A stretch of 64,000 nucleotides of DNA, from positions 193,518-257,517 of the forward strand of contig DASPYU010000016.1 in NCBI GenBank assembly GCA_035636595.1. The letters are read 5' to 3'. The notes beneath the pieces were generated by a model, which worked only from the letters and a program-made list of their open reading frames with translations, did not search any database and was not told the DNA's origin. The position numbers and the translations under genes were made by a program. Shown here piece by piece: positions 6,619 to 46,110 of this stretch. The DNA is from Thermoplasmata archaeon (lineage in GTDB: Archaea > Thermoplasmatota > Thermoplasmata > RBG-16-68-12). How positions within the stretch are numbered: position 1 is the stretch's first letter; every line of letters begins with the position of its first letter.

Positions 6619-6619
6619 C

Positions 6620-8214: not shown

Positions 8215-8739
8215 ATGCCGCAAAAGACGAAGAGACCGCCACGCAAGACTGAGACCGCTTCGCAGGAGATCATCCCGTCCCTCTGGTTCGACCGCCAAGC
8301 CGAGGAGGCCGCGCGGTTCTACGTATCCCTGTTCCCGGACTCGCACGTCGACAAGGTCGTCAAAGCCCCCTCGGACTCCCCGAGCGGGAAACAGGGAGAC
8401 GTCCTCTCCGTCGACTTCACCCTGATGGGCCGGAAGTTCAGCGGCCTAAACGGCGGACCGTATTTCAAGTTCAACGAAGCCGTCTCATTCACCGTTCCGT
8501 GCGAGAGCCAGGCCGAGGTGGACCGATACTGGAAGGTTCTCTCGGCGGTACCCAAGGCCGAGCAATGCGGGTGGGTGAAGGACCGCTACGGTCTCTCGTG
8601 GCAGATCGTGCCAACGATGCTGTACGGGCTCCTCGCCGACCCGGACCGTAGGAAGGCCGGGCGCGTGATGGACGTGATGCTCAAAATGAAGAAGCTTGAC
8701 ATCAGGACACTGCAGCAAGCCTACGAGAACGCCAAGTGA
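8215..8739 (+). CDS. PhnB-like VOC-superfamily protein (3-demethylubiquinone-9 3-methyltransferase-like domain)
   Basis: 174 aa. IPSLWFDRQAEEAARFYVSLFPDS...WQIVP pattern. AGGGAG Shine-Dalgarno upstream. Confidence 0.7.
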   Translation: MPQKTKRPPRKTETASQEIIPSLWFDRQAEEAARFYVSLFPDSHVDKVVKAPSDSPSGKQGDVLSVDFTLMGRKFSGLNGGPYFKFNEAVSFTVPCESQAEVDRYWKVLSAVPKAEQCGWVKDRYGLSWQIVPTMLYGLLADPDRRKAGRVMDVMLKMKKLDIRTLQQAYENAK

Positions 8740-8753
8740 CGGGAGGCGACTCC

Positions 8754-9416: not shown

Positions 9417-9473
9417 ATCCCCAGGCGGGAATCGAGTCCCAACCTGCTAGCCTCCCCTCGACATCGCGCGGCC

Positions 9474-24700: not shown

Positions 24701-25618
24701 TCACGATGGCGTGCGTCGCTCGCGGACCTCGCTCGACTGATGCACGACGAGGTCCTTCGCCTCGACGACGTCGATGCGGCAGTGTGGGCCGATCCGGACT
24801 TCGTCGCCCTTCACGAGAGCCGCGGTCGTCGCCTCGAGTTCGATCTCCTCGCCCTCGATTCGCTCCGACGTCAGCTCGCCCCGCACGCGGAAGAACCCGC
24901 CGGTCGCCTTGACGCGAATCTCCTCGGCCTCGATCGTGGGGATCTTCGAGGTGCCGCCGAGATCGATGCTGACCTCCTCCGCCTTCAGGCCGCCGTCGAT
25001 CCGCACGGATCCGCTCGAGTGGAACTCCTCGACCTCGACCTTGCCGCGGACCTGCAGCGAACCGCTCGACGAGATCTCGTCGCCGAGGATATCCCCCTCG
25101 ACCTGGAGGGAACCGCTTGCCTCGATCTCATCCGCCTTGAGGCGGCCCGCGATTCGCGACGAGCCCGCGGATCGGAACTCGGACACGGTCACATCGCCTT
25201 CGAACGAGCACGAGCCTGCGACCCGTGCGACTTCCGCCTCGAGGGACCCCTGGACCTTCCCGCTGCCCGCAGCCTTGAAGTCGACCGTGCGGACCGGGTT
25301 GCCGGTCACGATCCCCGAGCCCGTGATCCGAATCTCCTCATCGCTCAGCTTGGCGCCGATGCCGGAAAACTCAACGGCGCGCATGGCCTCTCCGACGGCG
25401 CGGACGGCTTCCTCCGCGGCGTGGCCGGCGTCCTGTGTGGCCTGCGCCACCGCGGCGCCGATTGTCGAGCCGAGATCCGACATCGTCGGCGGCGGGGATT
25501 CCTCCGGTTCGTCGGGCTCCGACTCGTACCGGGCCTTGATCTCGAGATACGTCTTCTCGGAGATCTCACCGCGAGCCAGACGCTCCTCGAGCCGTCGCAG
25601 GATGTCCTTCCGCTTCAT
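24701..25618 (-). CDS. SHOCT-domain / bactofilin-like (polymer-forming cytoskeletal repeat) protein
   Basis: From ATG 25618: MKRKDILRRLEERLARGEISEKTYLEIKARYE (SHOCT-like). Then repeated G-S-x-xV/I beta-strand modules (ITGSGIVTG, AAGSGKVQG, SSGSLQVRG, SSGSVRIDG) typical of bactofilin/DUF4097-type solenoids. The track start 25774 adds 52 poorly conserved residues. Confidence 0.65.
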   Translation of the reverse strand: MKRKDILRRLEERLARGEISEKTYLEIKARYESEPDEPEESPPPTMSDLGSTIGAAVAQATQDAGHAAEEAVRAVGEAMRAVEFSGIGAKLSDEEIRITGSGIVTGNPVRTVDFKAAGSGKVQGSLEAEVARVAGSCSFEGDVTVSEFRSAGSSRIAGRLKADEIEASGSLQVEGDILGDEISSSGSLQVRGKVEVEEFHSSGSVRIDGGLKAEEVSIDLGGTSKIPTIEAEEIRVKATGGFFRVRGELTSERIEGEEIELEATTAALVKGDEVRIGPHCRIDVVEAKDLVVHQSSEVRERRTPS

Positions 25619-25950
25619 CGGCTCCACCAGAGAGTGTGGCTCGTCGCGAAATACGTTTGCGTTCCGACGGGCGAATCGAATCGGCTCTCGGCAATCGGGC
25701 CGAGCGATCCGGGCCGCACCGGCGGCTTCGTTCCGGGGCTGTGCATCGAGAGGCGTGCAAGCGAGTCGGTCCAACCCGCTTCCTTCGTGCCGAACATGCT
25801 GAGTTCATCGGCCGCGCGTTATTTATACAAACTTCGCGAATAAAAATGTTAACATCCGCCGCGGTCTCGACATCTTCTCCCTGGGAGGAGATGACGTCGG
25901 AGCCGGAGCGGAAGAACGTTGAAGTAGCCTGAAAGGACTCGCCCGCGGGG

Positions 25951-26364
25951 ATGGCGGAGCTCCTGGAGCTCATCCGGATTGCGGCCTCCGAGACGCGCCG
26001 CCAGATCCTGCGGTTGCTCCAGCAAGGGTTCGACCATCCGGAAGACCTCGCGAAGAAACTGAAGATGCGCCGTACGTCGGTTGACAAGCAACTCGCGGAG
26101 CTGTTCTCGTGGGGACTCGTCGACCGCGCGGCGGTGTTCCCGCCTGCCGGGCGTCCTCGCATCGTGTATCAAGTGACGCAGCGTGGGCGGGACCTCCTCG
26201 ACCTGCTTGAGCGGGTCGTGAAGGAATACACGGCCGGGTTCCGGACGGACTTTGAGCGGGAACTCGAGGCACTCGAGGCGAAGCTCGCGGCGGGAGAAAT
26301 CGCGGAAGAGATGTACTTCAAGCGCAGGAAGGAGCTCGAAGTACGGTACGACCTAGCGCTCTGA
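25951..26364 (+). CDS. winged-helix (ArsR-like) transcriptional regulator with C-terminal SHOCT-like helix
   Basis: ASETRRQILRLLQQGFDHPEDLAKKLKMRRTSVDKQLAELFSWGLV HTH. C-terminal GEIAEEMYFKRRKELE resembles a SHOCT motif. Divergent from the SHOCT-bactofilin gene. Confidence 0.65.
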   Translation: MAELLELIRIAASETRRQILRLLQQGFDHPEDLAKKLKMRRTSVDKQLAELFSWGLVDRAAVFPPAGRPRIVYQVTQRGRDLLDLLERVVKEYTAGFRTDFERELEALEAKLAAGEIAEEMYFKRRKELEVRYDLAL

Positions 26365-27111
26365 GCCGCGTTCCTTTCGACGCGCACGGGCGATCGCCTC
26401 GTCGAGGGACAACTCGCCGCGGGCGACCGCGTCGGCGAGTTCCGAGGAGATCGTCACGACGCCGCCGCTGTCGAGGCGCGATCGCCGTTGGATCTCTCGG
26501 ACCTCCCCCGGGGTGGGTCGGATTTCCACCGGAGGCACGACGCGCTGACCCGGCGTCCGTGCGATGTCGATCGCCGCATCGACGTCCGGTTGCGGGCTCC
26601 GATGCGTCGTGCCCGCCTCGTCGACGATCTCCACGCGGAGCCCGTCCCGCGCGAGCGCGTTCAGAATCCGGTTCCGGTTCGTCGGGTCGCCGTGACCCAC
26701 GCGCACCCGGACGTCCTTCGCAGGGAAGGTCCGCACCGCCTGGTGGATGTGGAACGCGACCGCTTCGGGGCTCGCGGCCACTCGCGTATCGATCACCTCC
26801 CCGTCACCGACGATCGCGATCCCCGGCTCCCGACCCGGGTCCACGCCGATTCGCAGCTCCCGCCACTCCGTCTTGCCCTTGAGCAGTTGGAGCGCCTTCG
26901 CGACGGACGCATCGATGTCGTCCACCGGGACGACGTGGGGGAAACGGACCTTCGGGGCTTCCGCGATCGACGTCAGAATCGCCCCGACGGACTCCGGGAT
27001 CCGTCGCGCGAAGGACAGGCTCGCGAACGGGACGTCGCGCGCCTTGAGGGCGGCCACGAGATCGTGGTACAGCCGGAAGTCTTCCGTCAGGATCCCGAGG
27101 ACTCTTCGCAT
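26353..27111 (-). CDS. RNase H-fold (YqgF/RuvC-like) domain protein with N-terminal alpha/beta domain, hypothetical
   Basis: 252 aa. IGVDPGREPGIAIVGDGEVID resembles the YqgF/RuvC resolvase N-terminal motif. Converges on and overlaps the HTH gene by 12 nt. Confidence 0.45.
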   Translation of the reverse strand: MRRVLGILTEDFRLYHDLVAALKARDVPFASLSFARRIPESVGAILTSIAEAPKVRFPHVVPVDDIDASVAKALQLLKGKTEWRELRIGVDPGREPGIAIVGDGEVIDTRVAASPEAVAFHIHQAVRTFPAKDVRVRVGHGDPTNRNRILNALARDGLRVEIVDEAGTTHRSPQPDVDAAIDIARTPGQRVVPPVEIRPTPGEVREIQRRSRLDSGGVVTISSELADAVARGELSLDEAIARARRKERGSER

Positions 27112-27395
27112 TCTGGGGTCGCGGAACCCGGCGCGGACGGATAATTCTTCCTCGGACGGTGCGTTTTCAGAAATGATTCACACATCTGATTTTCGAGTCG
27201 GAAGCGTGACATATCCAGCTTCCGCATCGTGTCAAGGGAGGAGATACATATCCTGCAGGATCAAGTCGCGCCGGAACTCGATGCGAAGGGCTTGCTACTC
27301 CGTGATGCACTGGCGATTCTCACCGTGGTCGGCGCCCTGGTCGCGTTCTACGGCATGATTAAACTCGTCTCGTTCCTGGCGGGAAGTCCTTCTCC

Positions 27396-28574
27396 CTAAG
27401 GCGCCCGGAACCGGTCGAACACGCCCCGATGGTTTCCGTCGCCCTCGCGTGACGGTCGAAGTTGTTCCAGCAGCCGCCGCTCCTCCGCCGTGAGTCGCGT
27501 CGGCGTGACGACGATCACCCGCACGAGTTCGTCCCCTTTTCCGCCGCCCTGGAACCGGGGCAGCCCCTTCCCGCGAAGGCGGAGCACGGTGTGGCTCTGG
27601 ACCCCCGCCGGGATGCGGAGCCGCGTCGTCCCGTCGAGGGTCGGCACCTCGACTTCCGCGCCCAGCGCCGCCTGGGCGAAGCTGATCGGAACGTCGAGGA
27701 GGAGGTCGTCGCCGTCGCGAGAGAATCGCTCGTGCGGGGCGATGTGGACGAGGACGTACAGGTCGCCGGGGGGTGCGCCGGCATCCCCCGCGAGCCCCCG
27801 CCCAGGGACACGCAGTTGGACGCCGTCCGGCACGCCCGGCGGGATCTCGACCGCGATCGTGCGGTCCTCCGTGATCCGGCCTTGGCCCCCGCAGCGGCGG
27901 CAAGGGGCCTTCGGCCATTGGCCGCGCCCGTTGCACTTCGGACACGTCGTGATCGTGATGAACTGGCTGTATCCGCGGCGCTGGGCGCTGCTCACCTGGC
28001 CCCGGCCGCCGCACGTCGGGCACGTGACGAGTTCCTCGCCCTCCGCCCCCGTACCCCGGCATGCCGGGCAGGTCATCGGATAGTGGACCGTGAGCTCCTT
28101 CCGGCCGCCCTTCGCGACCTCGTCGAGGGCGAGCTCCACCTCGACGCGGGTGTCGCGACCCGGCGCCGGCCCCCGGCGACGGCCGACCGCGGCGCTACCC
28201 CCGAAGAACTGCTCGAACAGGGAGCCGCCGAATCCGCCCGAGGCTCCGAAGATCGATTCGAAGAAGTCCCGGCCGAAAATGTCTTCGACGTCTGAGGCGT
28301 GCGTGAAGCGGGACCAGTCGAACCCTTGGCCGCCCCAGACCCGCTGCTTCAGGCCCTCCGCGCCGAGCTCGTCGTAGATCCGGCGCTTCTCGTCGTCCGC
28401 CAGGACCTCGTAGGCCTCGGAGACTTGCTTGAACTTCTCTTCCGCGGCTTTCGGATTCTCCCGGTTCAGGTCGGGATGGTATTTCTTCGCCATCTTGCGG
28501 TAGGCGCGCTTGATTTCGTCCTTCGACGCCCCTCGCGGGACGCCGAGGACCTCATAGTAGTCGGCGTCGGCCAT
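27396..28574 (-). CDS. dnaJ: molecular chaperone DnaJ
   Basis: J domain with HPD (KKYHPDLN), G/F-rich linker, four CxxCxGxG zinc-finger repeats. Confidence 0.95.
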
Positions 28575-28602
28575 AGCGCGCGCTTCCGCTCATGAAGACC
28601 GC

Positions 28603-30441
28603 TCACTTCTTGTCGACGTCCTCGAAGTCCGCGTCCACGACGCCCGGATCCGAGGAGCCGCCCGAGTCGCCCGAACCCGGCGGCGGCGCGGCGGGCTCGC
28701 CGCCCTTCCCGTACATCTCCGCGCCGATCTTTTGAGCCTCCTGGTTCAAGGCGTCGAACGCGGCGCGCAACTTCGAGATGTCGTCCGTCTGCAGGACCTG
28801 CTTCAGCGCCTCGACCTTCTCCGTGACGGAGGTGCGGGTCGCCTCGGAGATGTTCGCGGCGTGATCCTTGAGGAGCGTCTCCGTCGCGTAGACGAGCTGG
28901 TCCGCGTGGTTCCGGAGCTCGACGAGCTCCCGTCGCCGGCGGTCTTCCTCGCCGTGGCTCTCCGCGTCGCGAATCGCCTGATCGATTTTCGTCTGGTCCA
29001 TCCGCTGCGGCGCCATGATCGTGAGCTTCTCGGTCTTGCCCGTGGCCATGTCCTTCGCGCTCACGTTCAGGATGCCGTTCGCGTCGATGTCGAACGTGAC
29101 TTCGATCTTCGGCACCCCACGCGGGGCCGGAGGCATGCCGGTCAGGTAGAACTTGCCGAGGCTGACGTTGTCCCCCGCCATCGAGCGCTCCCCCTGGAGG
29201 ACGTGCACCTCCACGCTGGACTGACTGTCCGCTGCCGTGGTGAAGATTTCGCTCTTGCGTGTCGGGATCGTGGCGTTGCGCTCGATGAGCTTCGTGAAGA
29301 CGCCCCCGAGCGTCTCGACGCCGAGGCTGAGCGGGGTCACGTCGAGGAGGAGGATGTCCTTCACCTCGCCGCTGAGGACCGCGCCCTGGATCGCCGCGCC
29401 GAGCGCGACGCACTGCATCGGGTCCACGCCGCGCTCCGCCGGCCGCCCGAGGATCTTCTCGAACCGCTCGCGCACGACGGGCATGCGGGTCGGGCCCCCG
29501 ACGAGGATCACATGGTGGACGTCGGAGTACTGCCAGCCGGCGTCCTTGAACGCCTGGCGGATCGGGCCTTCGAGGCGTCCGAGGACCGGCTCGACGAGCT
29601 GCTGGAGCTTCGCGCGGGTCAGCTTCTTCTCGAGGTGAAGCGGCCCGCCGTCCTTCTGCGCGATGAACGGCAGGTTGATCGTCGTCTCGGCGGTCGAGGA
29701 CAGCTCGATCTTCGCCTTCTCCCCCGCATCGCGGAGGCGCTGCATCGCTTGGCGGTCCCCGGAGAGGTCCACGCCGTGGTCCTGTCGGAACTCCGTGACG
29801 AGCCACTGGATGAGGTTGTTGTCCATGTCCATACCGCCGAGCGCGGTGTCGCCTGACGTCGACGCGACCTCGAACACGCCGTCCCCCGTCTCCATCAGCG
29901 TGACGTCGAACGTCCCGCCGCCGAGGTCGAGGACGCAGATCTTGCCCTCGCCTTTCTTGTCCAGTCCGTAGGCGAGCGCCGCCGCAGTGGGCTCGTTGAC
30001 AAGCCGCAAGACCTCGAGGCCCGCGATCTTGCCGGCGTCCTTCGTCGCCTGCCGCTGGTTGTCGTTGAAGTACGCTGGGACCGTGATGACGACCTGGGAG
30101 ATCTTCGACCCTAGGAACGCCTCCGCGTCCGTCTTGATCTTGCGGAGGATCATCGCGGAGATCTCGGGCGGCGAGTAGTCCTTCCCGTCGATCCGGACTT
30201 TGTAGTCCGTCCCCATCTTCCGCTTAATCTGGATGATCGTCTTCTCGGGGTTGAGCACGGCCTGTCGCTTCGCCGGTTCCCCGACGAGGACCCCGTCCTT
30301 CGTGAAGGCGACGACGGACGGGAACATCTTCCCGCCGTACGCGCTGCCTTCCGCGCTCGGGATGATTTTCGGCGTTCCCCCTTCCATGTACGCGGCCTCG
30401 GAGTTCGTGGTCCCGAGGTCGATTCCGATGATCTTAGCCAT
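28603..30441 (-). CDS. dnaK: molecular chaperone DnaK (Hsp70)
   Basis: [22 protein letters not shown], full-length Hsp70. Start ATG 30441. The track begins 3 codons earlier at 30450. Confidence 0.97.
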
Positions 30442-30958
30442 CCGATTCACCTCCGTTATCGACGACGACGACCTGCGCAGGCCGCAGGATCCGGTCGTGG
30501 TAGCGGTAGCCTTTTCGCACGACCTCTTTCACGACGCCTTCTTTTGAATCTTTGTCCGGGACCTGCTGGACCGCGTCCATCAGGTACGGATCGAACGGGA
30601 CCCCGATTGCGAGGATCTCCTGCAGCCCGGCTTCGTTCAACGCCTTCGCGAGGTTGTCCCGGACCATCCGAACGCCATCGGCCGCCTTCCCCCCGAGCGC
30701 CGCCACCGCCGCGTCCATCTCGTCGAGGACCGGAAGAAGGCGGGCCAGGAGCGCCTCGTGCGCGAATCTCAAGAGGGTCTGCCCGTCCCGATCCGCGCGC
30801 TTGCGGTAGTTCTCAAACTCCGCCTGGAGGTACTTGAGCCGCGTCAGGAGTTCCTCGTTCTGGTGACGGACCTCGGCCAATCCGTCCGCCGGCGGTTCGT
30901 CGGAGGCCGTGTTCTCCTGGCTCTCCATCGTGGGCGTCTTCTCCGCCATCCTACTCAC
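30434..30958 (-). CDS. grpE: nucleotide exchange factor GrpE
   Basis: 174 aa. [15 protein letters not shown] GrpE signature. Overlaps dnaK by 8 nt. Confidence 0.9.
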
Positions 30959-31385
30959 CTTTCCGGACGCGCACCAGGTGCCCTCGCCGTCGCGGGAGCG
31001 TCACATCGAGCACGCCGTTCCGATAGGTCGCAGTGACCGCCTCCGGCTCGACGGGATGGGACAGCTCCACTTCCCGATGGAAGACGCGGCCGTCCGCGCC
31101 GAGCGCGTGGACCGTCAGCTGGGTGTGGGTCGTCGTGACCTCGATCGTTTCTCGGGACGCCCCGGGAAGTTCGAGGGTCACGTAGATCCGGGCCGGCGTC
31201 ACGACGACATCGGCGGTCCCCGGATGCACGCGGGATTCGTCCGCGACGGCGGACGGAGGCCCGAGGACCGGGACGCGAGTGGGTCCCACGGCCGGGAGGC
31301 TCCGGTGCCGGTCGAGCCGCCTCAGGAGGCGGTCGACGTCGGTCGGAGAGCGATCCTCCCCTTCGCCGGACGGATCCGAGACCAT
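30951..31385 (-). CDS. hsp20: small heat-shock protein (Hsp20/alpha-crystallin family)
   Basis: Alpha-crystallin domain (YVTLELPGASRETIEVT...ATYRNGVLDVTLPR). Overlaps grpE by 8 nt. Confidence 0.85.
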   Translation of the reverse strand: MVSDPSGEGEDRSPTDVDRLLRRLDRHRSLPAVGPTRVPVLGPPSAVADESRVHPGTADVVVTPARIYVTLELPGASRETIEVTTTHTQLTVHALGADGRVFHREVELSHPVEPEAVTATYRNGVLDVTLPRRRGHLVRVRKGE

Positions 31386-31417
31386 GGGGACCTCCGGGGC
31401 CCCCGGATTGGGGCCCC

Positions 31418-33070
31418 TCAGAAATCTTCGCCTTCGCCCCCGCCGTCGCCGCCTTCGCCGCCCTTGCCGGGGCCCTTGCCGCCGCCTTCGCCGGCCCTTG
31501 CCGCGATGACGTCGTCGATGCGGAGCACCATGACCGCCGCGTCCGTCGCCGAGGAGATCGCTTGGCTCCCGACCCGGATCGGCTCGATCACGTTCTCCTT
31601 CCTCATGTCGGAGACCTTGCCGCTGAAGACGTTGATTCCGGCATGCTTGTTGCCCTTCTTGTGCTCCTTCCGGAGCTCGATGAGGATGTCAATCGGGTCC
31701 AAGCCTGCGTTCTCCGCGAGGGTGCGAGGGATGACCTCGACCGCGTCTGCGAAGGCCTCGATGGCGATCTGCTCACGCCCGCCGACGCTCGAGGCGAAGT
31801 CCCGCAGTGTGAGGGCGATCTCTGTCGCGCTCGATCCACCGCCGGTGATGACCTTGCCGTCCTCGATCGCGACGGCCACGACGCTCGTCGCGTCCTCGAG
31901 GGACCGCTCGACCTCGTCCACGACGTGCTCGGTGCCTCCTCGGATCAGGATCGACATCGCCTTCGGATTCTTGCAGCCCGTGACGAAGGTCATCTCGTCC
32001 TCGCCGATCTTCTTCTCGTAGACCATCTTGGCGTAGCCGAGGTCGTCCTTCGAGAGCTCGTCGAGCTTCGTGACGACCTTGCCGCCAGTCGCCTTCGCGA
32101 GCTTCTCCATGTCCGACTTCTTGACTCGCCGTACCGCGTAGACTTCGGCCTTCGCGAGGTAGTGCTGTGCGAGGTCGTCGATGCCCTTCTGGCAGAAGAT
32201 GACCGTGGCACCGCTCTTCTTCACGGTGTCGACCATCCGCTTCAGCATCGACTCCTCTTCGTTCAGGAACGCCTGGAGCTGGGTCGGGTCCGTGATCTCG
32301 ATTTTCGCGTCGATCTCGGTCTTCTTGACCTCCAGGGCCGCGTCGACCAAGGCGATCTTCGCGTCCTTGACCTCGGACGGCATGCCGGGGTGCACGCGCT
32401 CCTTGTCGACGATGACGCCGTCGACGAGGGACGTGTCCGCAATCGAACCGCCCTGCTTCTTCACGACCTGGATGTTGTCGTCGTCCACGAAGTAGGAGTC
32501 GTCCGCGCGCTGCTCTGCGACGGTCGTGACGGCCTTCACAGAGATGTCCGCCAAGAGTTCCTTGTGGCCGCTGGACGACTTCGAGGACATCGCGGTCATC
32601 GCGACCTTCCTCAGGACGTCCGTGTCTTTGATCGAAATCTTCGTCGCAACCTTCTCGAGGACCTCGCGGGCCTTCTCCGCCGCCTGGCGGTACCCGGCGG
32701 CGATAACCGTCGGGTGGATGTTCTGCTCGATCAGATCTTCCGCCCTCTTGAGCAGTTCCCCCGCCAGGATGACGGCCGTCGTCGTGCCGTCGCCCGCTTC
32801 CTCGTCCTGGGTCTTCGCGACCTCGACGAGCATCTTCGCGGCGGGGTGCTCGATGTCGATCTCCTTGAGGATCGTCACGCCATCGTTCGTGATGACGACG
32901 TCCCCGAGGCTGTCGACGAGCATCTTGTCCATTCCCCGCGGGCCGAGCGTCGACCGCACGGCGTCCGCGACCGCTTTCGCGGCGGCGATGTTGTTGAATT
33001 GCGCTCCCTTGCCGCGATCGCGGCGCGTCCCTTCCTTCAAAACGAGTATCTGCGTTCCGGCTGGCATCAT
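31418..33070 (-). CDS. ths: thermosome subunit (group II chaperonin)
   Basis: From ATG 33070: [52 protein letters not shown]...[14 protein letters not shown]-terminal GGM-like tail. The track start 33208 adds 46 junk residues across the promoter. Confidence 0.95.
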
Positions 33071-33120
33071 GTAAATCTCTCCGAATACGGAATTCGGGAC
33101 TCTGCCTATGTTGGGACTTC

Positions 33121-33127
33121 TATATAA
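33121..33127 (-). promoter_or_regulatory. TATA box (TTATATA on minus strand) of the thermosome / heat-shock operon promoter
   Basis: cgcttatatagaag on the minus strand, about 50 nt upstream of the thermosome ATG. AT-rich island within GC-rich DNA. Confidence 0.5.
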
Positions 33128-33492
33128 GCGTAGCGATGGATGGTTTGGTCCCATTGTCGGGGGATGCTTAAGAATACGCCCTGATGCGTCCCGTAGCGGG
33201 TGATGCAAATGGACTCCAAGAATCCGGAAGGGAATCGCCCTGCCGTTCCAGGACGGATGGGGCGACCTGATCCGGTGGGCGACCTACTGGAGCGCCCGAC
33301 GAGGGATGGCGTCCATGTAGGGTGCGTGCTACTGGTGGATTCATGCCTCCCGAGCCGACTGAAAGTGCCGAGGGATGCCTCTGACCATGGAACAGGAGGG
33401 TATGGACGCGCCGGTAACTTGTCCATACTACTTGTCGATGTATTCTCAGTACAGTAAACTGTAGACAAAAAGCCTTAATACGCACGCAGAGC

Positions 33493-33858
33493 TTGCTGAG
33501 AGCATGCGTACCTGAGACTCTGGAACAAACGGAAGAGGCCTTTTGTAGCTCTTGGCATCATCCGTCCAGAAACCCAGGACGAGAACACGTTAATATCGCG
33601 CCGGGCGTCCGGGTCGCCGTGCGGAAGGTGGTTTTCCCCAAGGACTTCAAGAGCAAGGTCCACCCAACCCAGATCAAACAGGCGTGCGAAAAGATACCTC
33701 CACGGAAGAAAACTCAGCACCTGAATCGCGATGTGGTGCTGACCATGGAGATGGGTGGTCCTTTTCTCTTTCTGACGTTCCAATACCATGAACATGAAGA
33801 CGAGGAAGTACTGTACGTAAAGAACGCGAAATGGACGAAATCTAAGGGTAAACGATGA
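33493..33858 (+). CDS. hypothetical small protein (TTG start), candidate toxin partner of the downstream Panacea-domain gene
   Basis: 121-aa ORF in lower-GC DNA. No in-frame ATG near its 5' end. Its stop overlaps the next ATG by 4 nt (ATGA). No recognisable domain. Confidence 0.25.
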   Translation: MLRACVPETLEQTEEAFCSSWHHPSRNPGREHVNIAPGVRVAVRKVVFPKDFKSKVHPTQIKQACEKIPPRKKTQHLNRDVVLTMEMGGPFLFLTFQYHEHEDEEVLYVKNAKWTKSKGKR

Positions 33859-34526
33859 CCGAAAACGGAGAGTGTGAGCACGAGGGGCAGTGGATTCCAA
33901 CCACCGCGGAGTTCGAGACCGTCCGCTGGAATGGCGAACCCCTCCTTTTGCACGACGTTCCAGCCAAGTCATGCCCGCTTTGCAATGAGACCATTGTCGA
34001 CGCGGATGATGTGATCCGGGCAGAGCAGAGATGGATAGCCGGAGAGCTGGGGCTTACTCCTCGGGAGGCAAACATCCTCCTGATGTTGTATGCCCAGGGG
34101 CCTCGATTCACCGAGACCGGTTATGTGGAGGAGAAGTACCGCTTCAACAAGATGCTCTTTTCCGTCTGGAAAGAACTCGAGAAGGAAGGGTTGGGGCAAT
34201 CTTTCCTCCACGACAGCTTCCGGGCGGAGAGCCGAGGGCCCGTTCCCGACAATCTGGAAACGGATTCGAAGTCTCTGGAAAGTAAGGGCCTTACCAAGGT
34301 GCGATGGGGAGGGAAGGCGGCCAAGACGTCATTCCGGTGGGATCTCACCACTGAAGGGTGGAATCGGTCGAAGCAGCTTTACAACTTGACACCTCAGGCG
34401 ATGCGTGACGCTGTGTCGAAAGCAAAGGAAGAACTCTTCCTGCTAGACTCCACCCAGATGATGCACAAGATCCACGAACTCTACCCCGAGTACAAGAAAG
34501 CTTACCGGGAAAAGGACGAAGAATGA
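33855..34526 (+). CDS. YgiT/MqsA-type zinc-ribbon plus Panacea (DUF4065) domain protein, putative type II antitoxin
   Basis: N-terminus GECEHEG...KSCPLCNETIVDADDVIRAEQ parallels the MqsA Zn-binding domain (CxxC/H ... CxxC). Central NILLMLYAQGP...FRAESRGPVPDNL matches the DUF4065/Panacea core (KLxKLLYxAQG ... FxAWxYGPV). Confidence 0.55.
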   Translation: MTENGECEHEGQWIPTTAEFETVRWNGEPLLLHDVPAKSCPLCNETIVDADDVIRAEQRWIAGELGLTPREANILLMLYAQGPRFTETGYVEEKYRFNKMLFSVWKELEKEGLGQSFLHDSFRAESRGPVPDNLETDSKSLESKGLTKVRWGGKAAKTSFRWDLTTEGWNRSKQLYNLTPQAMRDAVSKAKEELFLLDSTQMMHKIHELYPEYKKAYREKDEE

Positions 34527-34672
34527 GGCATCCCCTTCCACCGGAGCCCTCGGCACACATGCCGGGGGTTTCCTTTTTCGCCAGCCTTTTCCCAAGCCCT
34601 GGCCGCTTCGACGGCGAGAGTGGCACCTGAGGGAATTTCGCTGATACCCGAGACTTAAGGCGGCGGATTGTT

Positions 34673-34855
34673 ATGTCCGGGTCATTGGATACCCCACCCG
34701 CAACGCTGATCGGAGCCTTGATCGGGTTCGTCGGCGGACTCATCTATGGAGCCATGACCGGCCAGTGGATCACTGGCCTAATTGGCGGGACCATTATCGG
34801 AGCCATCGTCGGGGCTGTCGTTGACGCGATAGGCAAGCAGGTCGGAGGGGCCTGA
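34673..34855 (+). CDS. glycine-zipper micro-membrane protein (GlsB/YeaQ/YmgE-like)
   Basis: 60 aa. LIGALIGFVGGLIYGAMTGQWITGLIGGTIIGAIVGAVVDAIG with serial GxxxG/A motifs. ATG with AAGGCGG 8 nt upstream. Confidence 0.4.
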   Translation: MSGSLDTPPATLIGALIGFVGGLIYGAMTGQWITGLIGGTIIGAIVGAVVDAIGKQVGGA

Positions 34856-35125
34856 CCCCCCGACGGAAGGCCCTCACACGCCCGTCCGGGGCCAACAACG
34901 TCGCAACGGAACCCCACGTGGGCGTGCGCACAATCGCACACGGGGCGGCACTACGGCAGCCCAGTTTTCTTTCCGGATCGATCCTGACGACACGGGGCCC
35001 TTTATGAACCTCGACCCGAGGAGTTGACGAGACTCTCAGGCACTCTGACGCTCAAGCTCCTAGGCTCGAGAATCTTGTGCCTGGAAGGCCGCATGAGTGA
35101 TGGGCTCGGGACTGTAAGATGGAGG

Positions 35126-35530
35126 CTATTCATCCGGTGGCAACTCGATTTCCCATGTGCAGATCTCGACCAGAGTCTTCCTTATCCGGGTGTAGCTGGG
35201 TCCCGTGACGAGACTATGGGCCGGATTGGCCGTCTCCGGCGCATGCCGGACATTCAACTCACGGTCCCACATCTGGCCCGCGGTCGTCTTGACTACTCCA
35301 GCTCGTATCTCCGGTTTCGTCGAGCGTTCGAGAGTCCTCCGTGGCGTTGAGTATCTACTCCAGTCAAACGAGATGCCTTCGTCTATGTCACGCTCCTTCC
35401 CAAAGGCGCCAGGTTGAAGCTTGTGTTCGGGCCCCTTGGTGAAGTCGTCCGGCACCCATCTGAAGAAACAGTCCGCGGGATTCTTTATTTCCTGAGGCTG
35501 AGGAGGACCCTCTGCTAGCTCGTTAGCCAA
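35126..35530 (-). CDS. hypothetical protein (island ORF C) with HEPN-like Rx5H motif
   Basis: 134-aa ORF starting at TTG 16 nt before ORF B's stop. Same frame as ORF A. Contains RELNVRH and GISFDWSRYSTP. Confidence 0.3.
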   Translation of the reverse strand: MANELAEGPPQPQEIKNPADCFFRWVPDDFTKGPEHKLQPGAFGKERDIDEGISFDWSRYSTPRRTLERSTKPEIRAGVVKTTAGQMWDRELNVRHAPETANPAHSLVTGPSYTRIRKTLVEICTWEIELPPDE

Positions 35531-36069
35531 CTCACAAGACCTCGGTTCGGCTGGGTTGGATCGACGAGAGTACCATCGAATCTACCTCTGTCCTTACCGT
35601 CGCCTGCGAACTCCACTGGAAGTTTGGGGTCGGCCGGAATGTTGACAAGCAGGTTCAGATTTGGAAGATCCCAGAAAATGTCAATGCTCCCTTGCGGCCC
35701 CGGTCCGATCTCAGGCAGGGGCATGGGTTCGACGTTAAGACGTAGGTATTCCTGCCATTGGAGCCTCACGAACGCGATTGCCCTGTCCAGGGTGTCCTTG
35801 GAATAGCGAGGCGACCCCCGCCCGTCGAAGTTGTCCTTGAGGCCTAGGAGCCATTTGGCATCATCGATGATCCCGGCAAGCTTGTCGGACACAGCTGCGA
35901 ACTCGAGCTGCACCCCGTCCCGGTGCCGCTCCACGAGTTGTTCCAGCAGCGGCCGCGGCCTGACCGTATGCTGCGGCGGCCAAAGGTTGCGGGACTGAAA
36001 GTGCTGACGGTCCATGCAGGGCCACATCGGAATAGTCTTGCCATTAGAGTTCGAGAACGTTGATACCAC
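35515..36069 (-). CDS. hypothetical protein (island ORF B); possibly the out-of-frame middle segment of a disrupted larger gene
   Basis: 184-aa ORF that begins at GTG inside ORF A's last 26 nt. First ATG is 14 codons in. Its frame differs from A and C, which share a frame. Confidence 0.3.
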   Translation of the reverse strand: MVSTFSNSNGKTIPMWPCMDRQHFQSRNLWPPQHTVRPRPLLEQLVERHRDGVQLEFAAVSDKLAGIIDDAKWLLGLKDNFDGRGSPRYSKDTLDRAIAFVRLQWQEYLRLNVEPMPLPEIGPGPQGSIDIFWDLPNLNLLVNIPADPKLPVEFAGDGKDRGRFDGTLVDPTQPNRGLVSWLTS

Positions 36070-36724
36070 CTTCTCGCGCTGATGCCGTGAGACTTGCCTC
36101 CTTGTGAGTCGCCCTATCGAGCAACTTCTTCAGTTCCACGATGTCAGTACTGTCGAGAGCCACGAAGAAGTCCTTTGTCGTTTCCTCTCCATTCTCATGG
36201 AAGGTAATTTTCGCTTGATGCACGACGACAGCTGCCAACGGTCCCTTGTCCACATCTCTGCCAAATACTGGTCGTAGATCGGTCAGGATTCTCGCTGTGC
36301 AGAATACGTGATTCTGCTCGGACCGGACCTGGCTGGCTTTCGCGCTTACCCCAAGTGTGTCATCGAGTGAGAGGACTTGCGTAAGGTACGTCTTGAATTC
36401 GTTCCAGTTCACATCCTTCGTCGGCAGTTCGGGGTCTTTGGAGGCCTGAATTGTGTCGCATACATCCGCCGCAAACTTTTCCGTTGGATCCCCAGCGATA
36501 TCCATGGACTCATAGAGTCCAGCCAAAAGCCGGAATAGGCCATCCGCATCCGCTTTGGAAGCACCGGCCTTTTTTACCCACGCAGTAACGAAGCTGCGAC
36601 CGAGGAGGCTAGGCTTTGCTTCCTTCAGCACATCAAAGAGTTCCCTACGCTCCTTCTGAGAGAACCGAAGGAGCTGCGCGAGCACACGCTTCTGTTGTTC
36701 GGGAATTCCGAGACCGTCGGGCAT
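36044..36724 (-). CDS. hypothetical protein (island ORF A)
   Basis: About 226 aa from ATG 36724 (MPDGLGIPEQQKRVLAQLL...). Lower-GC codon usage. No recognisable domain. Its stop is overlapped by ORF B. Confidence 0.4.
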   Translation of the reverse strand: MPDGLGIPEQQKRVLAQLLRFSQKERRELFDVLKEAKPSLLGRSFVTAWVKKAGASKADADGLFRLLAGLYESMDIAGDPTEKFAADVCDTIQASKDPELPTKDVNWNEFKTYLTQVLSLDDTLGVSAKASQVRSEQNHVFCTARILTDLRPVFGRDVDKGPLAAVVVHQAKITFHENGEETTKDFFVALDSTDIVELKKLLDRATHKEASLTASAREGGINVLEL

Positions 36725-37017
36725 CGCGATCACGCCACGGCGGCTCTGATAGATTTGTTGTTCGCACGTACAAGAATGAATCTAGTGGTGACCAGAGAGC
36801 TGTCCCCTTCCCGGACGCAGGCGTCGTCCTTCCCCAGCAAGGACCCTTCCGAATCGACTATTGGATTTAAGGGTTTTGCCAAGGGGCGTCAAACCTTGCC
36901 GCTGGACGACCATGCACCTTAAGTTAACAAAACCCGCGCACCAGGTTTGACATTAGGAATCAGTCCTAAAGCGGCCACACCCGTCGCAATCCTTTGGTTT
37001 TGGAGTGGCAGATGGGC

Positions 37018-37464
37018 TCAGCTACCTGGAACGTACCATGACTGAACGTTCGTGAAACCCCACCGGACGAGCACGCTCTGCGCGACAGCGTAGCAACTTT
37101 CCGGCACGAGCAGCATGACCTTCGCTCCAGAGCTAACGTAGTCTCGTAACTGGCCGCGCGTGTGATCGTTGTCCAAATCCGCGCACGTCTTCACTTCGCC
37201 CATGACCCAAGCATTCCCCGGACCCAGCGCGGTGAGATCGGGAATCGATCCGCCGGCAGTTTGTCGTGGTTTGTTTGGAATCTCGGGCAAGGCGGCTGAG
37301 ATTTGAGTATATCCCCTTCCGCGTAGGGTTTCGACCCATCCGCGAAGCATACGGTCGTGTTGTTCCTGATCCGTCGAAAAAACCATGAGAAATCCGGCCT
37401 CGACTATCTCAGAGGGTCTGAGGCACATACTTAACTCTTTTCGGCGTTCGTTCCGATTGTTCAT
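37018..37464 (-). CDS. Hjc-type Holliday-junction-resolvase-like PD-(D/E)xK nuclease
   Basis: HDRMLRGWVETLRGRGY...IPDLTALGPGNAWVMGEVKTC...RGQLRDYVSSGAKVMLLVPE aligns with the Hjc pattern (ERELxKxLxxxGF...DLVA...IEVK...GRLIEF...VLAVKF). ATG 37464. Track start is TTG 37476. GC about 56%, versus about 67% for flanking genes. Confidence 0.45.
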   Translation of the reverse strand: MNNRNERRKELSMCLRPSEIVEAGFLMVFSTDQEQHDRMLRGWVETLRGRGYTQISAALPEIPNKPRQTAGGSIPDLTALGPGNAWVMGEVKTCADLDNDHTRGQLRDYVSSGAKVMLLVPESCYAVAQSVLVRWGFTNVQSWYVPGS

Positions 37465-37593
37465 CCGGATAACCAATCACCCAGTCAGTCCCCCGCGAGG
37501 GGACAGCTGGTCCATCCCCCGTTGATGAGACAACCTGATGGATTACCGCGCATGTGGAAAATCGGCGCCGTCCTCTCGCACGCGGTACCATAA

Positions 37594-37624: not shown

Positions 37625-38392
37625 GTGAAGGGACTTCTCCTCGAGCTCGCGGATGCCGTCCAGCACGCCGTCGACTCGTTCGCCGGGAATCCCGCCGAGG
37701 TGATCGGCCGCGGCGCGGATGGCGCACCGAGCACCCGCATCGACCGAATCGCGGAGGAAGCGGTCCTCCGCGTCCTAGATTACGAGGGGGCGGCGCTCAA
37801 CGTACTGAGCGAAGAGGCGGGATACGTCGATCGCGGCGGCGAAGCCACCCTCGTCCTCGATCCCATCGATGGGACCCATAACGCCCTGCGTGGAGTCCCG
37901 GCGTACTCCGTCTCCCTCGCGATCGGCCACGAACATCTGGCCGAAATCCAGGAGGCCCTCGTCCGGGACCTGGTGTCCGGCGCCACCTACTACGCCGCGA
38001 AGGGCGGCGGCGCCCTCCTCAACGGCCATCCAATCCATGTCCATGCGTACGATCCGAAGGACGTGTTGTTCAGCGTCTACCTCGGAACGAACGCGGCCCC
38101 GGACGCAACGCGGGTCGCGGGCCTCGCCCGGCGGGTTCGCGCTCTCGGGGCGGCATCCCTCGACATGTGCCTCGTGGCCCGCGGGGCCGCAGACCTGTAC
38201 TACATGCACAGCGCGACCGTCGACGCGAAATTGCGCGCCGTCGACATCGCCGGCGGGACGCTCATCGTGCGGGAAGCGGGGGGCCAGGTGCTCGACCTCG
38301 ACGGACGGGATCTCGATTTGCCGCTCACGACCGCGGCCCGCACCGACCTGGTCGCGGTCGGCGACCGACGAGCCTGGGAGGTCATCCGATGA
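37625..38392 (+). CDS. inositol monophosphatase / fructose-1,6-bisphosphatase family protein
   Basis: From GTG 37625: VKGLLLELADAVQ...DRIAEEAV...LVLDPIDGTHNA...WDxAAG-like. IMPase motifs DPIDGT and the C-terminal metal site. The track's 37538 start adds 29 unlikely residues. Confidence 0.8.
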   Translation: MKGLLLELADAVQHAVDSFAGNPAEVIGRGADGAPSTRIDRIAEEAVLRVLDYEGAALNVLSEEAGYVDRGGEATLVLDPIDGTHNALRGVPAYSVSLAIGHEHLAEIQEALVRDLVSGATYYAAKGGGALLNGHPIHVHAYDPKDVLFSVYLGTNAAPDATRVAGLARRVRALGAASLDMCLVARGAADLYYMHSATVDAKLRAVDIAGGTLIVREAGGQVLDLDGRDLDLPLTTAARTDLVAVGDRRAWEVIR

Positions 38393-43618: not shown

Positions 43619-44113
43619 TCAGCGGGATCCGACTTTCTGGCCGCAGTACGGGCAAACCTTCCAGTCCGGCAAGAGCGCCGCGCCGCAATTCTTGCATGCA
43701 ATCGGTGCCATCGAGGGCGCGCGGCGAGCCTTGGTCTCCGCCGTCCCGAGAGACTGCCAGAATGCGAGCATGAGATTCTGTGCGTCCGTTTCGTATTCGG
43801 TATAGGAAATGGCGCCGCCGAGCACCGCGACGGGCAGCAGGAAGACCGCCGTCACGGCCCCGGCAATGAGGCCCTCGTCCGTGATCGAGGCGCCGAACGA
43901 AAGGTCGACATTACAGCCACCATCGGTATCGTCGAGGATCAAGTCGAACTCACGGCGGAGCCCGATTTGAGAATAGTGCGATGCGCCATGGATCCGGTAC
44001 GGCCCCGTCTTGGTGAGTGCAAACCCCTGACGGGTCCACCAACCCCACGCCTTCGGCCAGAAATCCTCGCGTCGCGCGCCCGGGAAGGATCGGACCTCGC
44101 GCTTCTCGAACAC
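43619..44113 (-). CDS. hypothetical membrane protein with C-terminal zinc ribbon
   Basis: 164 aa. One TM helix (AGAVTAVFLLPVAVLGGAI) and a C-terminal CKNCGA...CPYCGQ motif. Confidence 0.45.
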   Translation of the reverse strand: MFEKREVRSFPGARREDFWPKAWGWWTRQGFALTKTGPYRIHGASHYSQIGLRREFDLILDDTDGGCNVDLSFGASITDEGLIAGAVTAVFLLPVAVLGGAISYTEYETDAQNLMLAFWQSLGTAETKARRAPSMAPIACKNCGAALLPDWKVCPYCGQKVGSR

Positions 44114-44210
44114 GCCTCAACGAACTCGCAGATGCGCTTAGGGTTTTCGACGGCAGGCCAACCCACCGCAAGATTATTACGAGCCCACGAATTCGCTGCG
44201 GAGCACGCGT

Positions 44211-44295
44211 GCGTGGGTTGCCAAGCTTGGTCAAAGGCGCAGGACTCAGGATCCTGTCTCGTAGGGGTTCGCAGGTTCAAATCCTGCCCCACGCA
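44211..44295 (+). tRNA. tRNA-Leu (anticodon CAG), type II with long variable arm
   Basis: GCGTGGG acceptor, anticodon stem CAGGA/TCCTG with loop CTCAGGA, 14-nt variable arm, T-arm GCAGGTTCAAATCCTGC, 3' CCCACGC plus A. 85 nt. CCA not encoded. Confidence 0.9.
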
Positions 44296-44655
44296 TCCTA
44301 CCTCTCGTCCGGCCTCGTGGTTTCGCTGCGTCCAGAAAGCGACATTAGGTGGACCCTAGCCAAACGTAAGAAACGCGCCTGAATCGACTCCGACGGACCG
44401 GTTTGTACCGACCCTATTTGAAGGAGACCGGGCGACATATAAGTAGCGAGACAGACAAACGTCCGACGTGGGGTCTACGTCCGAGCTAGATTTCCGTAAG
44501 ACTCCACATTTCATATTGCAACCGCAGACTATGCACGAAACTTTTTCATAGTTCCCGGGGCATTTCAAGACCCGCCAAGTGAACGGGATTTCGGGGCGAC
44601 CGGATCCCGGACGCCGGTCAGTGGACCGGCCTCATTTTCACTTGGAGGTGATCGA

Positions 44656-46110
44656 TTGCCGTCCCAGAAGTTCAGCCGGAAGTATCTCACGCGACACAAA
44701 CGGAGCGCCCAGCTCTGGCGCCGCGCGAGCAAGCTCACCCCGGGCGGCGTCGAGAGCAACATCCGGTACTTCAAACCGCATCCGTTCCTCGCGGACTACG
44801 GCGATGGCGGCTACATCTACGACGTCGACGGCAACAAGATCCTCGACTTCATGATGGGCTTCGGCGGGCTGCTCCTCGGGCACAACAACCGCGACATCGC
44901 CCTCGAGGTGATCAAACAGCTCGAATCCGGTTCGATGCTCGGCGTCACGAGCGAGCTCTTCGTCGACTACCTCGAGACGGTCCAGAAGGCCGTCCCGTCG
45001 ATGAAGAAAATCCGCCTGACGAACAGTGGCACGGAGGCGACGATGCACGCCCTCCGGACCGCCCGCGCATATACGGGCCGCGAGAAGATCGCGAAGGCCG
45101 AAGGCGCGTACCACGGCGCCCACGACTACGTCCTGCAGAGCCTCGACATGGACGCGCGGACCGCGCGGCGGATGAACGGCTACAAGCCGGTCCCATATGG
45201 CCGCGGCATCCCGAAGGCGGTCTCCGACACGGTCGTCATCTATCCGTACAACGACATCGAAGGCACCGCCGAAGTCCTCGAGAAGAACGAGGACGAGGTC
45301 GCCGCCCTCATCATCGAGCCGGTGCTGTGCGGACCCGGCGTCATCGTCCCGAAGGGAAACTACCTGACACGGTTGCGGCAGCTCACGCGAAAGAAGCGGG
45401 TCGTCCTCATCTTCGACGAAGTCCTGACCGGGTTCCGCCTCGCCTACGGCGGCGCGCAGGAATACTACGACGTCCGGCCGGACTTGACGACCTTCGGAAA
45501 GATCGCCGGCGGCGGCTTCCAGCTCGCGGGATTCGGCGGCGAGGCGCAGATCATGGACGTCCTCGAGCCGGGCCGCGGGTGGCGGTACGCGACGTTCCAT
45601 GCGGGCACCTACAACGGCCATCCGATCAGTGTGGCCGCCGGACTGAAGGGCCTGCAGATCCTGGGCGAGCACCCGGAGTATTACGATCACGTCAACAGCC
45701 TCGGCCGCCAGCTCTTCACCGGACTCCAGGACCTCGCGGACGACCGACGCCTCCCCGCATGGGTCGAGTACGTCGGGTCGATCGGGAACGTCTACTTCAC
45801 GACAAAAGACGAGATCCGGAACTTCCGGGACACCCTGAGCGCGAACACGCGGCGCTGGTGGAACTGGTTCATCCACTGCCTTGGGAACAACGTCCTGTTC
45901 GGCATTCCGCAAACGGGCGAGCGGGCATTCCTCTGCACGGAGCACACGGAGGAAGACATCGAGTGGGCGCTCGAGGTCGCGGACAACGCGTTCGCCGCGA
46001 TCGCCAAGGAAGCGAAACGCCATCGCGAGAAGGCCCCATCCGTCCAAATGCAAGCCGTCGGCGAGCAAGCCGCGCTGTATGGAGAGGCGCAACCGCCCCC
46101 GAGCGTGTGA
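44656..46110 (+). CDS. class III aminotransferase (glutamate-1-semialdehyde 2,1-aminomutase-like)
   Basis: 484 aa. GFGGLLLGH, TNSGTEA, IFDEVLTGFR, TFGKIAGGG (PLP lysine) motifs. The 484-aa antisense ORF is an artefact. Confidence 0.85.
   Translation: MPSQKFSRKYLTRHKRSAQLWRRASKLTPGGVESNIRYFKPHPFLADYGDGGYIYDVDGNKILDFMMGFGGLLLGHNNRDIALEVIKQLESGSMLGVTSELFVDYLETVQKAVPSMKKIRLTNSGTEATMHALRTARAYTGREKIAKAEGAYHGAHDYVLQSLDMDARTARRMNGYKPVPYGRGIPKAVSDTVVIYPYNDIEGTAEVLEKNEDEVAALIIEPVLCGPGVIVPKGNYLTRLRQLTRKKRVVLIFDEVLTGFRLAYGGAQEYYDVRPDLTTFGKIAGGGFQLAGFGGEAQIMDVLEPGRGWRYATFHAGTYNGHPISVAAGLKGLQILGEHPEYYDHVNSLGRQLFTGLQDLADDRRLPAWVEYVGSIGNVYFTTKDEIRNFRDTLSANTRRWWNWFIHCLGNNVLFGIPQTGERAFLCTEHTEEDIEWALEVADNAFAAIAKEAKRHREKAPSVQMQAVGEQAALYGEAQPPPSV

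Follow-up and report, generated by a model that had tools for sequence, protein, structure and literature searches.

We analysed a 64,000-nucleotide (nt) stretch of DNA from a Thermoplasmata archaeon (assembly GCA_035636595.1, contig DASPYU010000016.1; hereafter the window), and focused on an islet of about 4.4 kb with low GC content near its centre. The islet holds seven open reading frames (ORFs), i79, i223, i60, i134, i184, i229 and i152 (Table 1), one more than the six counted in an initial annotation made from the sequence alone; in NCBI the islet genes correspond to VEO20_05475-05500, and every one of them is annotated as a hypothetical protein. Domain-recognisable housekeeping genes end at the thermosome gene (31418-33070, minus strand), the first of a thermosome-Hsp20-GrpE-DnaK-DnaJ cluster on that strand, and restart at IMPase (37625-38392, plus strand), from which an IMPase-NADK-JAB group runs on the plus strand. 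This puts the islet in the space between two divergently oriented promoters, confirming its placement by the initial annotation between the heat-shock operon promoter and the IMPase/NADK operon, and an insertion at this position disrupts no operon.

The base composition of the islet set it apart from the rest of the window. GC content was 56.6% over positions 33190-37500 versus 65.2% in the remaining 59.7 kb, the lowest of all 4.3-kb segments of the 64 kb (mean 64.6%, standard deviation 2.2%). Tetranucleotide distance from the whole window peaked at 33001-37000 with z = 5.0, the sole outlier, and z was at most 0.6 everywhere except in segments overlapping the islet. GC content at third codon positions (GC3) was 0.60-0.70 in the seven islet ORFs versus 0.83-0.92 in six flanking genes (Hsp20, thermosome, IMPase, NADK, JAB and GT4). 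These measurements bore out the drop in GC and the foreign composition that had been noticed by inspection. The TTG and GTG starts ascribed to the islet genes at that time stood in part: non-ATG starts appear to be limited to i79 (GTG) and i134 (TTG), while i223 and i60 begin with ATG, i229 and i184 most likely start at internal ATG codons that match the public gene calls, and in-frame ATG codons are available to i152.

Table 1. Features of the low-GC islet and of its left boundary, in window coordinates.
Feature	Position	Strand	Basis and remarks
Thermosome promoter region, left boundary, outside the islet	33106..33203	-	TATA-box block and upstream palindrome CCCG-CTA-CGGG
Whole low-GC islet	33205..37590	.	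GC, tetranucleotides, GC3; similarity to L004 ends at ~33205; IMPase starts at 37625
i79, small basic protein, candidate toxin partner of i223	33619..33858	+	79 aa, pI 9.8; homologous small ORF upstream of i223 homologues
i223, MqsA/YgiT-type zinc-ribbon N-terminus and Panacea (DUF4065)-like/DarG-CTD-like domain with winged helix, candidate PanA-like antitoxin	33855..34526	+	Family scans, motif, fold match
Terminator-like hairpin and T-run, just 3' of the i223 stop	34543..34582	+	13-pair stem, then CTTTTTCGCC; consensus match only
i60, glycine-zipper-like peptide	34673..34855	+	60 aa, two hydrophobic segments; sub-threshold Pfam scores, GxxxG-type repeats visible
i134, third cassette gene, mostly basic small family, candidate enzymatic effector or toxin	35126..35530	-	Invariant S54, W57, Y60, P73, H96, P98, H105
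i184, second cassette gene, acidic family of unknown fold, candidate neutraliser or adaptor	35515..36027	-	Longest ORF to 36069; motifs WDGEGS, GSIDLHW, LLVNIP, FYGDD
i229, first cassette gene, COMMD-like (helical HN domain and COMM domain)	36044..36724	-	Longest ORF to 36733; 226 aa from ATG 36724
i152, orphan ORF with PD...E-V-K...Q-L-R-D-Y motif	37018..37464	-	148 aa from ATG 37464; 136 aa from ATG 37428

The most interesting content of the interval, which the initial annotation had missed, is a three-gene cassette led by i229. A profile (A2) built from i229 and 17 relatives matched the PDB entry 9q6a_A, 'COMMD-like protein MBK5214510', with E = 1.5e-32, aligning positions 3-218 of 227 to residues 21-235 of 240, and the single i229 sequence matched the same entry with E = 2.8e-12. 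The family shares a conserved C-terminal block (RILTDLRPVF...H.lKI...FFVALD..D...L..RA..KE). On this sequence match, i229 is almost certainly a COMMD-like protein. The matched protein is the member from Flavobacteriaceae that was crystallised in the study of this prokaryotic family (Liu, Collins, Healy et al., Nat Commun 2026, PMC13392464; PDB 9q6a/9q6c/9q6d); its proteins are homologous to the COMMD subunits of eukaryotic Commander and form homo-octameric or decameric rings (PMC13392464). In keeping with membership, i229 aligned with the solved protein over nearly its full length, is about 226 amino acids (aa) long and has no other domain, and by homology it may form a homo-octameric or decameric ring as well. 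Prokaryotic COMMD-like proteins are less than 20% identical to eukaryotic COMMD and escape sequence searches seeded from eukaryotes (PMC13392464). This remark fits our finding that no Pfam family, including the eukaryotic COMM domain, matched any of the 18 members of the i229 family at E ≤ 1. The HN region gave sub-threshold Pfam matches to Effector-associated domain 1 (EAD1) in four of the 18 members (best E = 0.0066) and to TacA1 in two; these matches are too weak to be used, if intriguing in view of the conflict hypothesis discussed below.

The function of COMMD-like proteins was stated as unknown in that study and no conserved partner was reported; its text does not contain the words 'operon', 'toxin' or 'defence', or Thermoplasmata, and the only gene neighbourhood it gives is one resembling a type VI secretion system (T6SS) in Myxococcota (PMC13392464). 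A paper on Asgard COMMD-like homologues also gives the function as unknown, with no gene context and no conserved partner. Unlike the proteins in the published account (PMC13392464), i229 leads a conserved cassette with two alternative partner pairs and does so within a foreign islet.

The genes i229, i184 and i134 lie on the same strand in that order and overlap or nearly abut. The overlap of i184 and i134 is 16 nt; between i229 and i184 there is either an overlap of at most 26 nt or a gap of no more than 16 nt. We scanned JGI metagenome contigs with the alignment of the COMMD-like family, found 314 relatives and kept 80 loci, of which 47 had at least 1.3 kb of downstream sequence; collapsing those more than 95% identical left 35 non-redundant loci. 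At 20 of these (type A) the COMMD-like gene was followed by an i184-family gene and then by an i134-family gene, with hidden Markov model (HMM) E-values of 1e-37 to 1e-51 and 1e-33 to 1e-46, respectively. A second arrangement (type B), present at 14 loci (L123, L126, L133, L137, L142, L155, L156, L159, L162, L165, L169, L175, L178 and L180), placed a gene for a protein of about 150-195 aa, named B2, after the COMMD-like gene, followed by a gene for the Pfam family DUF7689. The DUF7689 domain was detected in 14 of 14 type B members (best E = 2.8e-39); the B2 family carries a 'WFWAL' motif, has no Pfam match and went undetected in the L159 lineage. The one remaining locus (L164) was divergent, with two ORFs of similar size behind the COMMD-like gene and a marginal i184 match. 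With a cassette at 35 of 35 loci, every examinable COMMD-like gene of this subfamily leads a three-gene cassette. Profile comparison with hhalign found no relation between the type A and type B partners, and in a neighbour-joining tree the type B cassettes fell mostly in one clade, with two apparent exceptions. From the gene order, i229, i184 and i134 very probably work as one unit.

Neither i184 nor i134 had a Pfam or PDB match, even when profiles and scans of family members were used. The i134 family comprised 161 cluster representatives at 50% identity among 1.84 billion proteins, nearly all of them stand-alone proteins of 105-150 aa. One metagenomic protein of 370 aa (P0122) combines an i184-type and an i134-type domain, and together with the 16-nt overlap it suggests a link between the two gene products. 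Their charges are opposite at the family level, with an isoelectric point (pI) of 4.8 (median) for i184 and 9.0 for i134. DUF7689 has a conserved N-C-x-A-W-A motif and an invariant His/Asp/His set resembling a Cys-His hydrolase; its profile gave chance-level matches only among PDB sequences, and the literature searched contained no mention of it. The invariant residues of the i134 family and those of DUF7689 suggest that both are enzymes.

Cassettes related to that of the islet were found among unrelated neighbours. In the closest non-identical cassettes the three proteins were about 80/77/71% (L182, tblastx) and 66/51/44% (L099, tblastn) identical to those of the window, and nothing besides the cassette was common to these loci and the islet at E ≤ 1e-6; an i223-like ORF in L099 was a weak match (24% identity, E = 1e-4). 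Both loci carry a DDE transposase (rve_3/IS240-type) of 573/574 aa at 2.6-4.2 kb downstream of the cassette (L099 7207-8928, L182 4644-6368). The two transposases are 71% identical to each other, and the window has none. The GC content of both loci, 56-58%, is close to that of the islet. In Bacteria the contexts of cassettes include MurJ, PTS-HPr (phosphotransferase system) and a cyclic-oligonucleotide-based antiphage signalling system (CBASS). In the latter locus (L095, 1-16681) a type A cassette is flanked at one end by a complete CBASS operon (TRIP13, HORMA, cyclase and SAVED) with an M78 peptidase and at its other end by a pair of AAA_15/21 ATPases. Overall, the cassette looks like a self-contained module that moves horizontally, belongs to no fixed pathway and is found in recognisable defence islands only in some cases.

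On the opposite strand the islet encodes a pair resembling a toxin-antitoxin module. The stop codon of i79 overlaps the start of i223 (ATGA), and a small i79-like ORF lies directly upstream of an i223 homologue in four other contexts (L087, L092, L094 and L181); the pI of i223 is 5.2, versus 9.8 for i79. The i223 family comprises 18 clusters, archaeal where named (Thermoplasmata, Methanoperedens). Among 16 members scanned, four matched SocA_Panacea below threshold (best E = 3.1e-4), five weakly matched MqsA_antitoxin and six matched an HxlR winged helix. The match of i223 to the NCBIfam YgiT/MqsA zinc finger TIGR03831 was marginal (20.5 bits, cut-off 20.2), its Foldseek match to MqsA (3gn5) was weak (E = 0.02), and the zinc-ribbon ligands C-x-H...C-x-x-C were present only in closer relatives. 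G128, P129 and P131 of the i223 motif R-G128-P129-V130-P131 were invariant in 16 sequences, down to 36% identity; GPV is the conserved Panacea signature and is critical for neutralisation (PMC8832971). The top fold match of i223 was the C-terminal toxin-binding domain of DarG, which is homologous to DUF4065 and is its sole solved homologue (PMC13621843). The family matches, the GPV signature and the DarG fold match uphold the Panacea-type antitoxin candidate of the initial annotation, though i223 itself stays below the Pfam threshold. Searched alone, i223 had no PADLOC or PHROG match.

The i223 homologues occur in the contexts of mobile or addiction genes. One such context is a cluster rich in toxin-antitoxin genes, where MazE-PIN is accompanied by a nucleotidyltransferase, RelA_SpoT and HerA-NurA. 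In archaeal contigs of 33% GC (L091-L093, ~3000-9900) the homologue and its small upstream ORF abut a tyrosine integrase, a position that seems to mark one end of an element integrated behind a ribosomal-protein cluster, and one further homologue is on an IMG/VR contig whose large ORFs had no Pfam match at E ≤ 0.01. We consider that i79-i223 is probably a PanAT-like type II system, in which the antitoxin would sequester the toxin directly through its Panacea-like domain. With PanA-PanT pairs it shares the GPV motif, a DarG-CTD-type fold, tight coupling to a small partner gene and diversity of partner families, and the presence of a small membrane-type peptide (i60) near i223 is reminiscent of the membrane-disrupting PanT toxins, which are common (PMC8832971). 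PanA-PanT pairs also include a predicted Panacea-type alternative antitoxin to MqsR (Kurata et al., PNAS 2022, PMC8832971). Unlike PanA, i223 scores below the SocA_Panacea threshold and carries an MqsA-like zinc ribbon; its candidate partner i79 matches no known toxin family.

The i60 peptide is separated from i223 by the hairpin and T-run. The glycine zipper assigned to it earlier fell short of both Pfam cut-offs, with 21.7 bits for Gly-zipper_OmpA (cut-off 27) and 17 bits for Gly-zipper_Omp (cut-off 25) (PF13436/PF13488). It holds an internal 25-nt repeat, and a homologue (53% identity) that looks truncated follows an i223 homologue in one other lineage (L087-90). It may be a membrane-active partner of the pair or an independent small gene. 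At the other end of the islet, the translation of i152 has P82-D83, E104-V-K106 and Q119-L-R-D-Y at spacings typical of PD-(D/E)xK nucleases, as read by eye. No match to i152 was found in Pfam, NCBIfam, PHROGs, PADLOC, PDB sequences, plasmids or IMG/VR; its cluster at 90% identity has four members, and NCBI annotates a 61-aa fragment only. The nuclease named in the initial annotation is thus reduced to a motif-level lead.

We then compared the borders of the islet with L004, the nearest GTDB species representative, whose thermosome is 90% identical. Alignment of the regions upstream of the thermosome showed that a 24-nt block including the TATA box (33106-33129) is identical in L004 (promoter region ~8150-8320), and that the palindrome (~33190-33203), about 70 nt upstream of the TATA block, is retained there as CCCGCCACGGG. 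This palindrome may be the site of a heat-shock regulator. Translated similarity (tblastx) between L004 and the window stops at 33097, and unrelated genes lie beyond the L004 promoter. No similarity to L004 was found past the palindrome, which places the left edge at ~33205, near the start first proposed; the right edge lies between 37476 and ~37590. In a sample of 80 thermosome loci from GTDB species representatives, neither IMPase/NADK nor any islet gene was found upstream of the thermosome (0 of 80), and only one locus had NADK, some 8 kb downstream. Synteny therefore breaks off at this site.

Signs of an integration mechanism were looked for at the same borders. The islet ORFs include no integrase, and the closest tRNAs lie at 10.9 and 44.2 kb of the window, with none within 6.7 kb. 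A 19-nt inverted pair (33148/37513) and an 18-nt direct pair (33104/37621), considered as terminal inverted repeats or att sites, were rejected as chance-level: the boundary repeats, direct and inverted, scored 9, a score matched by 22% of shuffled sequences. The lack of an integrase, tRNA target and clear direct repeats had been noted from the start. Convincing ORFs and Rfam matches are both missing from about 1 kb of the islet (33205-33618, 34856-35125 and 36734-37017), which could hold promoters, decayed genes or small RNAs. An Rfam scan of the whole islet was negative too, and promoter and terminator scans of the islet gave nothing above chance except the hairpin 3' of i223.

Taken together, we interpret the islet as a recently acquired mosaic of about 4.4 kb, made of at least three independently mobile modules set in a divergent promoter gap, and we give this reading a probability of about 0.6. 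Its modules recur separately in unrelated contexts in Bacteria and Archaea, some of them beside transposases, an integrase, toxin-antitoxin genes or CBASS. In the first module i79 would be a toxin bound directly by i223, a PanA-type antitoxin, via the Panacea/DarG-CTD-like domain; i223 may also act as an autorepressor of its promoter by means of the zinc ribbon and winged helix, and i60 may be an accessory of the module. In the second, i229 would form a ring, homo-octameric or decameric by homology to the solved bacterial protein, while the acidic i184 and the small, probably enzymatic i134 most likely bind each other. The cassette could then act as a tripartite conflict module in which the ring is a scaffold or chaperone for an effector-neutraliser pair, a pair that might be swapped for an unrelated one, as with B2 and DUF7689 in type B. 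The third module would be i152, an orphan nuclease-like ORF. The composition, the gene order, the homologies and the conservation of the cassette are established here; toxicity, neutralisation, ring formation by i229 and any defence role are predictions. The exchangeable partners, the mobility, the charge pattern and the occasional defence or toxin-antitoxin neighbours point only tentatively to a scaffold-neutraliser-effector conflict module. The broader proposal, that COMMD-like rings are the constant core of an undescribed mobile three-gene conflict system with an exchangeable neutraliser-effector pair, is more doubtful.

Several observations weigh against this interpretation. No empty-site allele was found among the 80 thermosome loci, none of which pairs the thermosome with IMPase/NADK, and we therefore infer acquisition from composition and context rather than observing it. 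Six ORFs (all but i79) matched no model of PADLOC-DB 2.0 at E ≤ 1. Searches of sequenced plasmids for the COMMD-like gene, i223, i134 and i152 were negative, as were those of sequenced phages for the COMMD-like gene and i223; in IMG/VR the COMMD-like gene and i152 were not found, and the i223 family had the one match given above. With respect to the first module, i79 had no Pfam or PDB match, profiles included, and no detectable toxin fold or family, and i223 itself had no Pfam match at E ≤ 1, so that it lies below the gathering threshold of SocA_Panacea (PF13274). With respect to the cassette, the i134 protein of the window is acidic (pI 5.5), unlike its family, and departs from two residues common in it (RWVP for RVH, VRH for VEH); single-sequence AlphaFold2 prediction of i134 gave a mean pLDDT (predicted local distance difference test) of 38.6 and no usable structure. 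P0122 may be a true fusion protein or an artefact of a one-base frameshift, given that the i184 and i134 genes, read in different frames, usually share 16 nt. Finally, among 148 ORFs neighbouring 28 cassette loci no family occurred more than three times and most were housekeeping genes, including S-adenosylmethionine (SAM) synthetase, S-adenosylhomocysteine (AdoHcy) hydrolase and methyltransferases; no defence family was recurrent, and the strong PADLOC matches among the neighbours came mostly from the single CBASS locus L095.

For the cassette, the main rival to a conflict module is a non-conflict cellular machine that happens to be mobile, for example a scaffold ring with two client or regulatory proteins in membrane or nucleic-acid metabolism. 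The mostly housekeeping neighbours without a recurrent defence family, the lack of PADLOC matches and the failure to find the COMMD-like family in sequenced plasmids and phages all favour such a machine, and the literature gives no function for the family, only the T6SS-like association in Myxococcota (PMC13392464). However, the cassette forms a compact, self-contained unit of overlapping genes and occurs in highly variable contexts. Two unrelated partner pairs stand behind one lead gene, with type B mostly but not exclusively tracking one COMMD clade; the partners pair an acidic with a basic family, and transposases lie near the closest relatives. One locus is in a defence island, and the cassette of the window adjoins the toxin-antitoxin-like pair. 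Weighing these points, we regard a non-conflict machine as possible but rather unlikely.

Two rivals for the islet as a whole fit the data poorly. According to the first, the region is native, a fast-evolving, lineage-specific and weakly expressed stretch whose low GC reflects relaxed selection and whose ORFs are ordinary hypotheticals. This would accord with the absence of an integrase, a tRNA target, significant repeats and an empty-site allele, and all other contigs with these exact proteins, which come from the same population, share the arrangement. In contrast, the GC3 difference from the flanks and the status of the islet as sole tetranucleotide outlier argue against a native origin, as do the cassette homologues in bacterial contexts and beside transposases, the patchy cross-domain distribution with i223 homologues in Methanoperedens and an archaeon of 33% GC, and the lack of islet genes next to the thermosome in L004; we consider it improbable. 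The second, equally improbable, is that all seven ORFs arrived together in one virus or plasmid that has since decayed, the provirus remnant of the initial annotation: the i223 homologue next to a tyrosine integrase, another on an IMG/VR contig, and the co-occurrence of a cassette and a weak i223-like ORF in L099 would suit a single element, but no viral hallmark (capsid, terminase, portal or replication gene) is present in the islet, PHROG matches were marginal and to families of unknown function (best E = 0.0055, for the low-complexity i60), the IMG/VR contig offers no Pfam-recognisable large ORF, the L182 cassette, 80% identical, sits among entirely different neighbours, and the COMMD-like family was not found in IMG/VR, sequenced phages or plasmids.

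The mosaic of mobile modules resembles the defence and toxin-antitoxin islands found at hotspots, in that unrelated small modules of atypical composition lie side by side between conserved operons, and homologous modules elsewhere stand beside CBASS, PIN-MazE, integrases and transposases. It differs from defence islands in being very small, in having no PADLOC-catalogued component and in retaining no mobility gene. Of the acquired defence or addiction cargo that had been proposed for the interval, the acquisition is thus backed by foreign composition, the synteny break and modules that recur in unrelated contexts, whereas the defence assignment found no PADLOC match for any ORF tested. Tripartite toxin-antitoxin-chaperone (TAC) systems with a SecB-like chaperone exist, and the cassette can be compared with them by analogy: both have three small co-directional overlapping genes, combine a homo-oligomeric accessory with an exchangeable pair, and are mobile and patchily distributed. 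The cassette differs in having no sequence or fold relationship to TAC systems and in encoding the oligomeric component first rather than last; the likeness is one of analogy only.

There is nothing unusual in a small foreign islet that carries a toxin-antitoxin-like pair, and the COMMD-like family is already published, its structural description dating from 2026. Neither that structural study (PMC13392464) nor the paper on the Asgard homologues describes the strictly conserved cassette with its two partner pairs, its movement across domains or its occurrence in Thermoplasmata. The i184/i134 and B2/DUF7689 pairs are the first concrete candidate partners for the COMMD-like family, and the cassette provides a testable hypothesis of a scaffold with a neutraliser and an effector that bears on the origin of the eukaryotic Commander ring. 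If COMMD-like rings were the core of a conflict system, the Commander COMMD ring would derive by exaptation from a prokaryotic module for handling toxins rather than from a proto-trafficking machine; such an origin would fit the T6SS-like, effector-delivery neighbourhood in Myxococcota (PMC13392464). The islet also adds an archaeal Panacea-like antitoxin candidate whose zinc ribbon is of the MqsA type and whose partner family is uncharacterised, and illustrates how selfish modules may build up in a divergent promoter gap with no mobility gene surviving.

Some further features of the window were noted. A second GC dip (57%, 60-61 kb) was examined as another island and rejected, as it corresponds to the Ser/Thr/Gly-rich C-terminal part of a surface-type protein of 1265 aa (60066-63863, minus strand) with zinc-ribbon-like Cys pairs at its N-terminus. 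A mild dip (59.9%) at 44001-45000 coincides with tRNA-Leu(CAG) at 44210-44298. The thermosome, Hsp20, GrpE, DnaK and DnaJ genes to the left of the islet form one co-directional cluster (~25400-33070, minus strand), which links an archaeal chaperonin to a DnaK operon of bacterial type.

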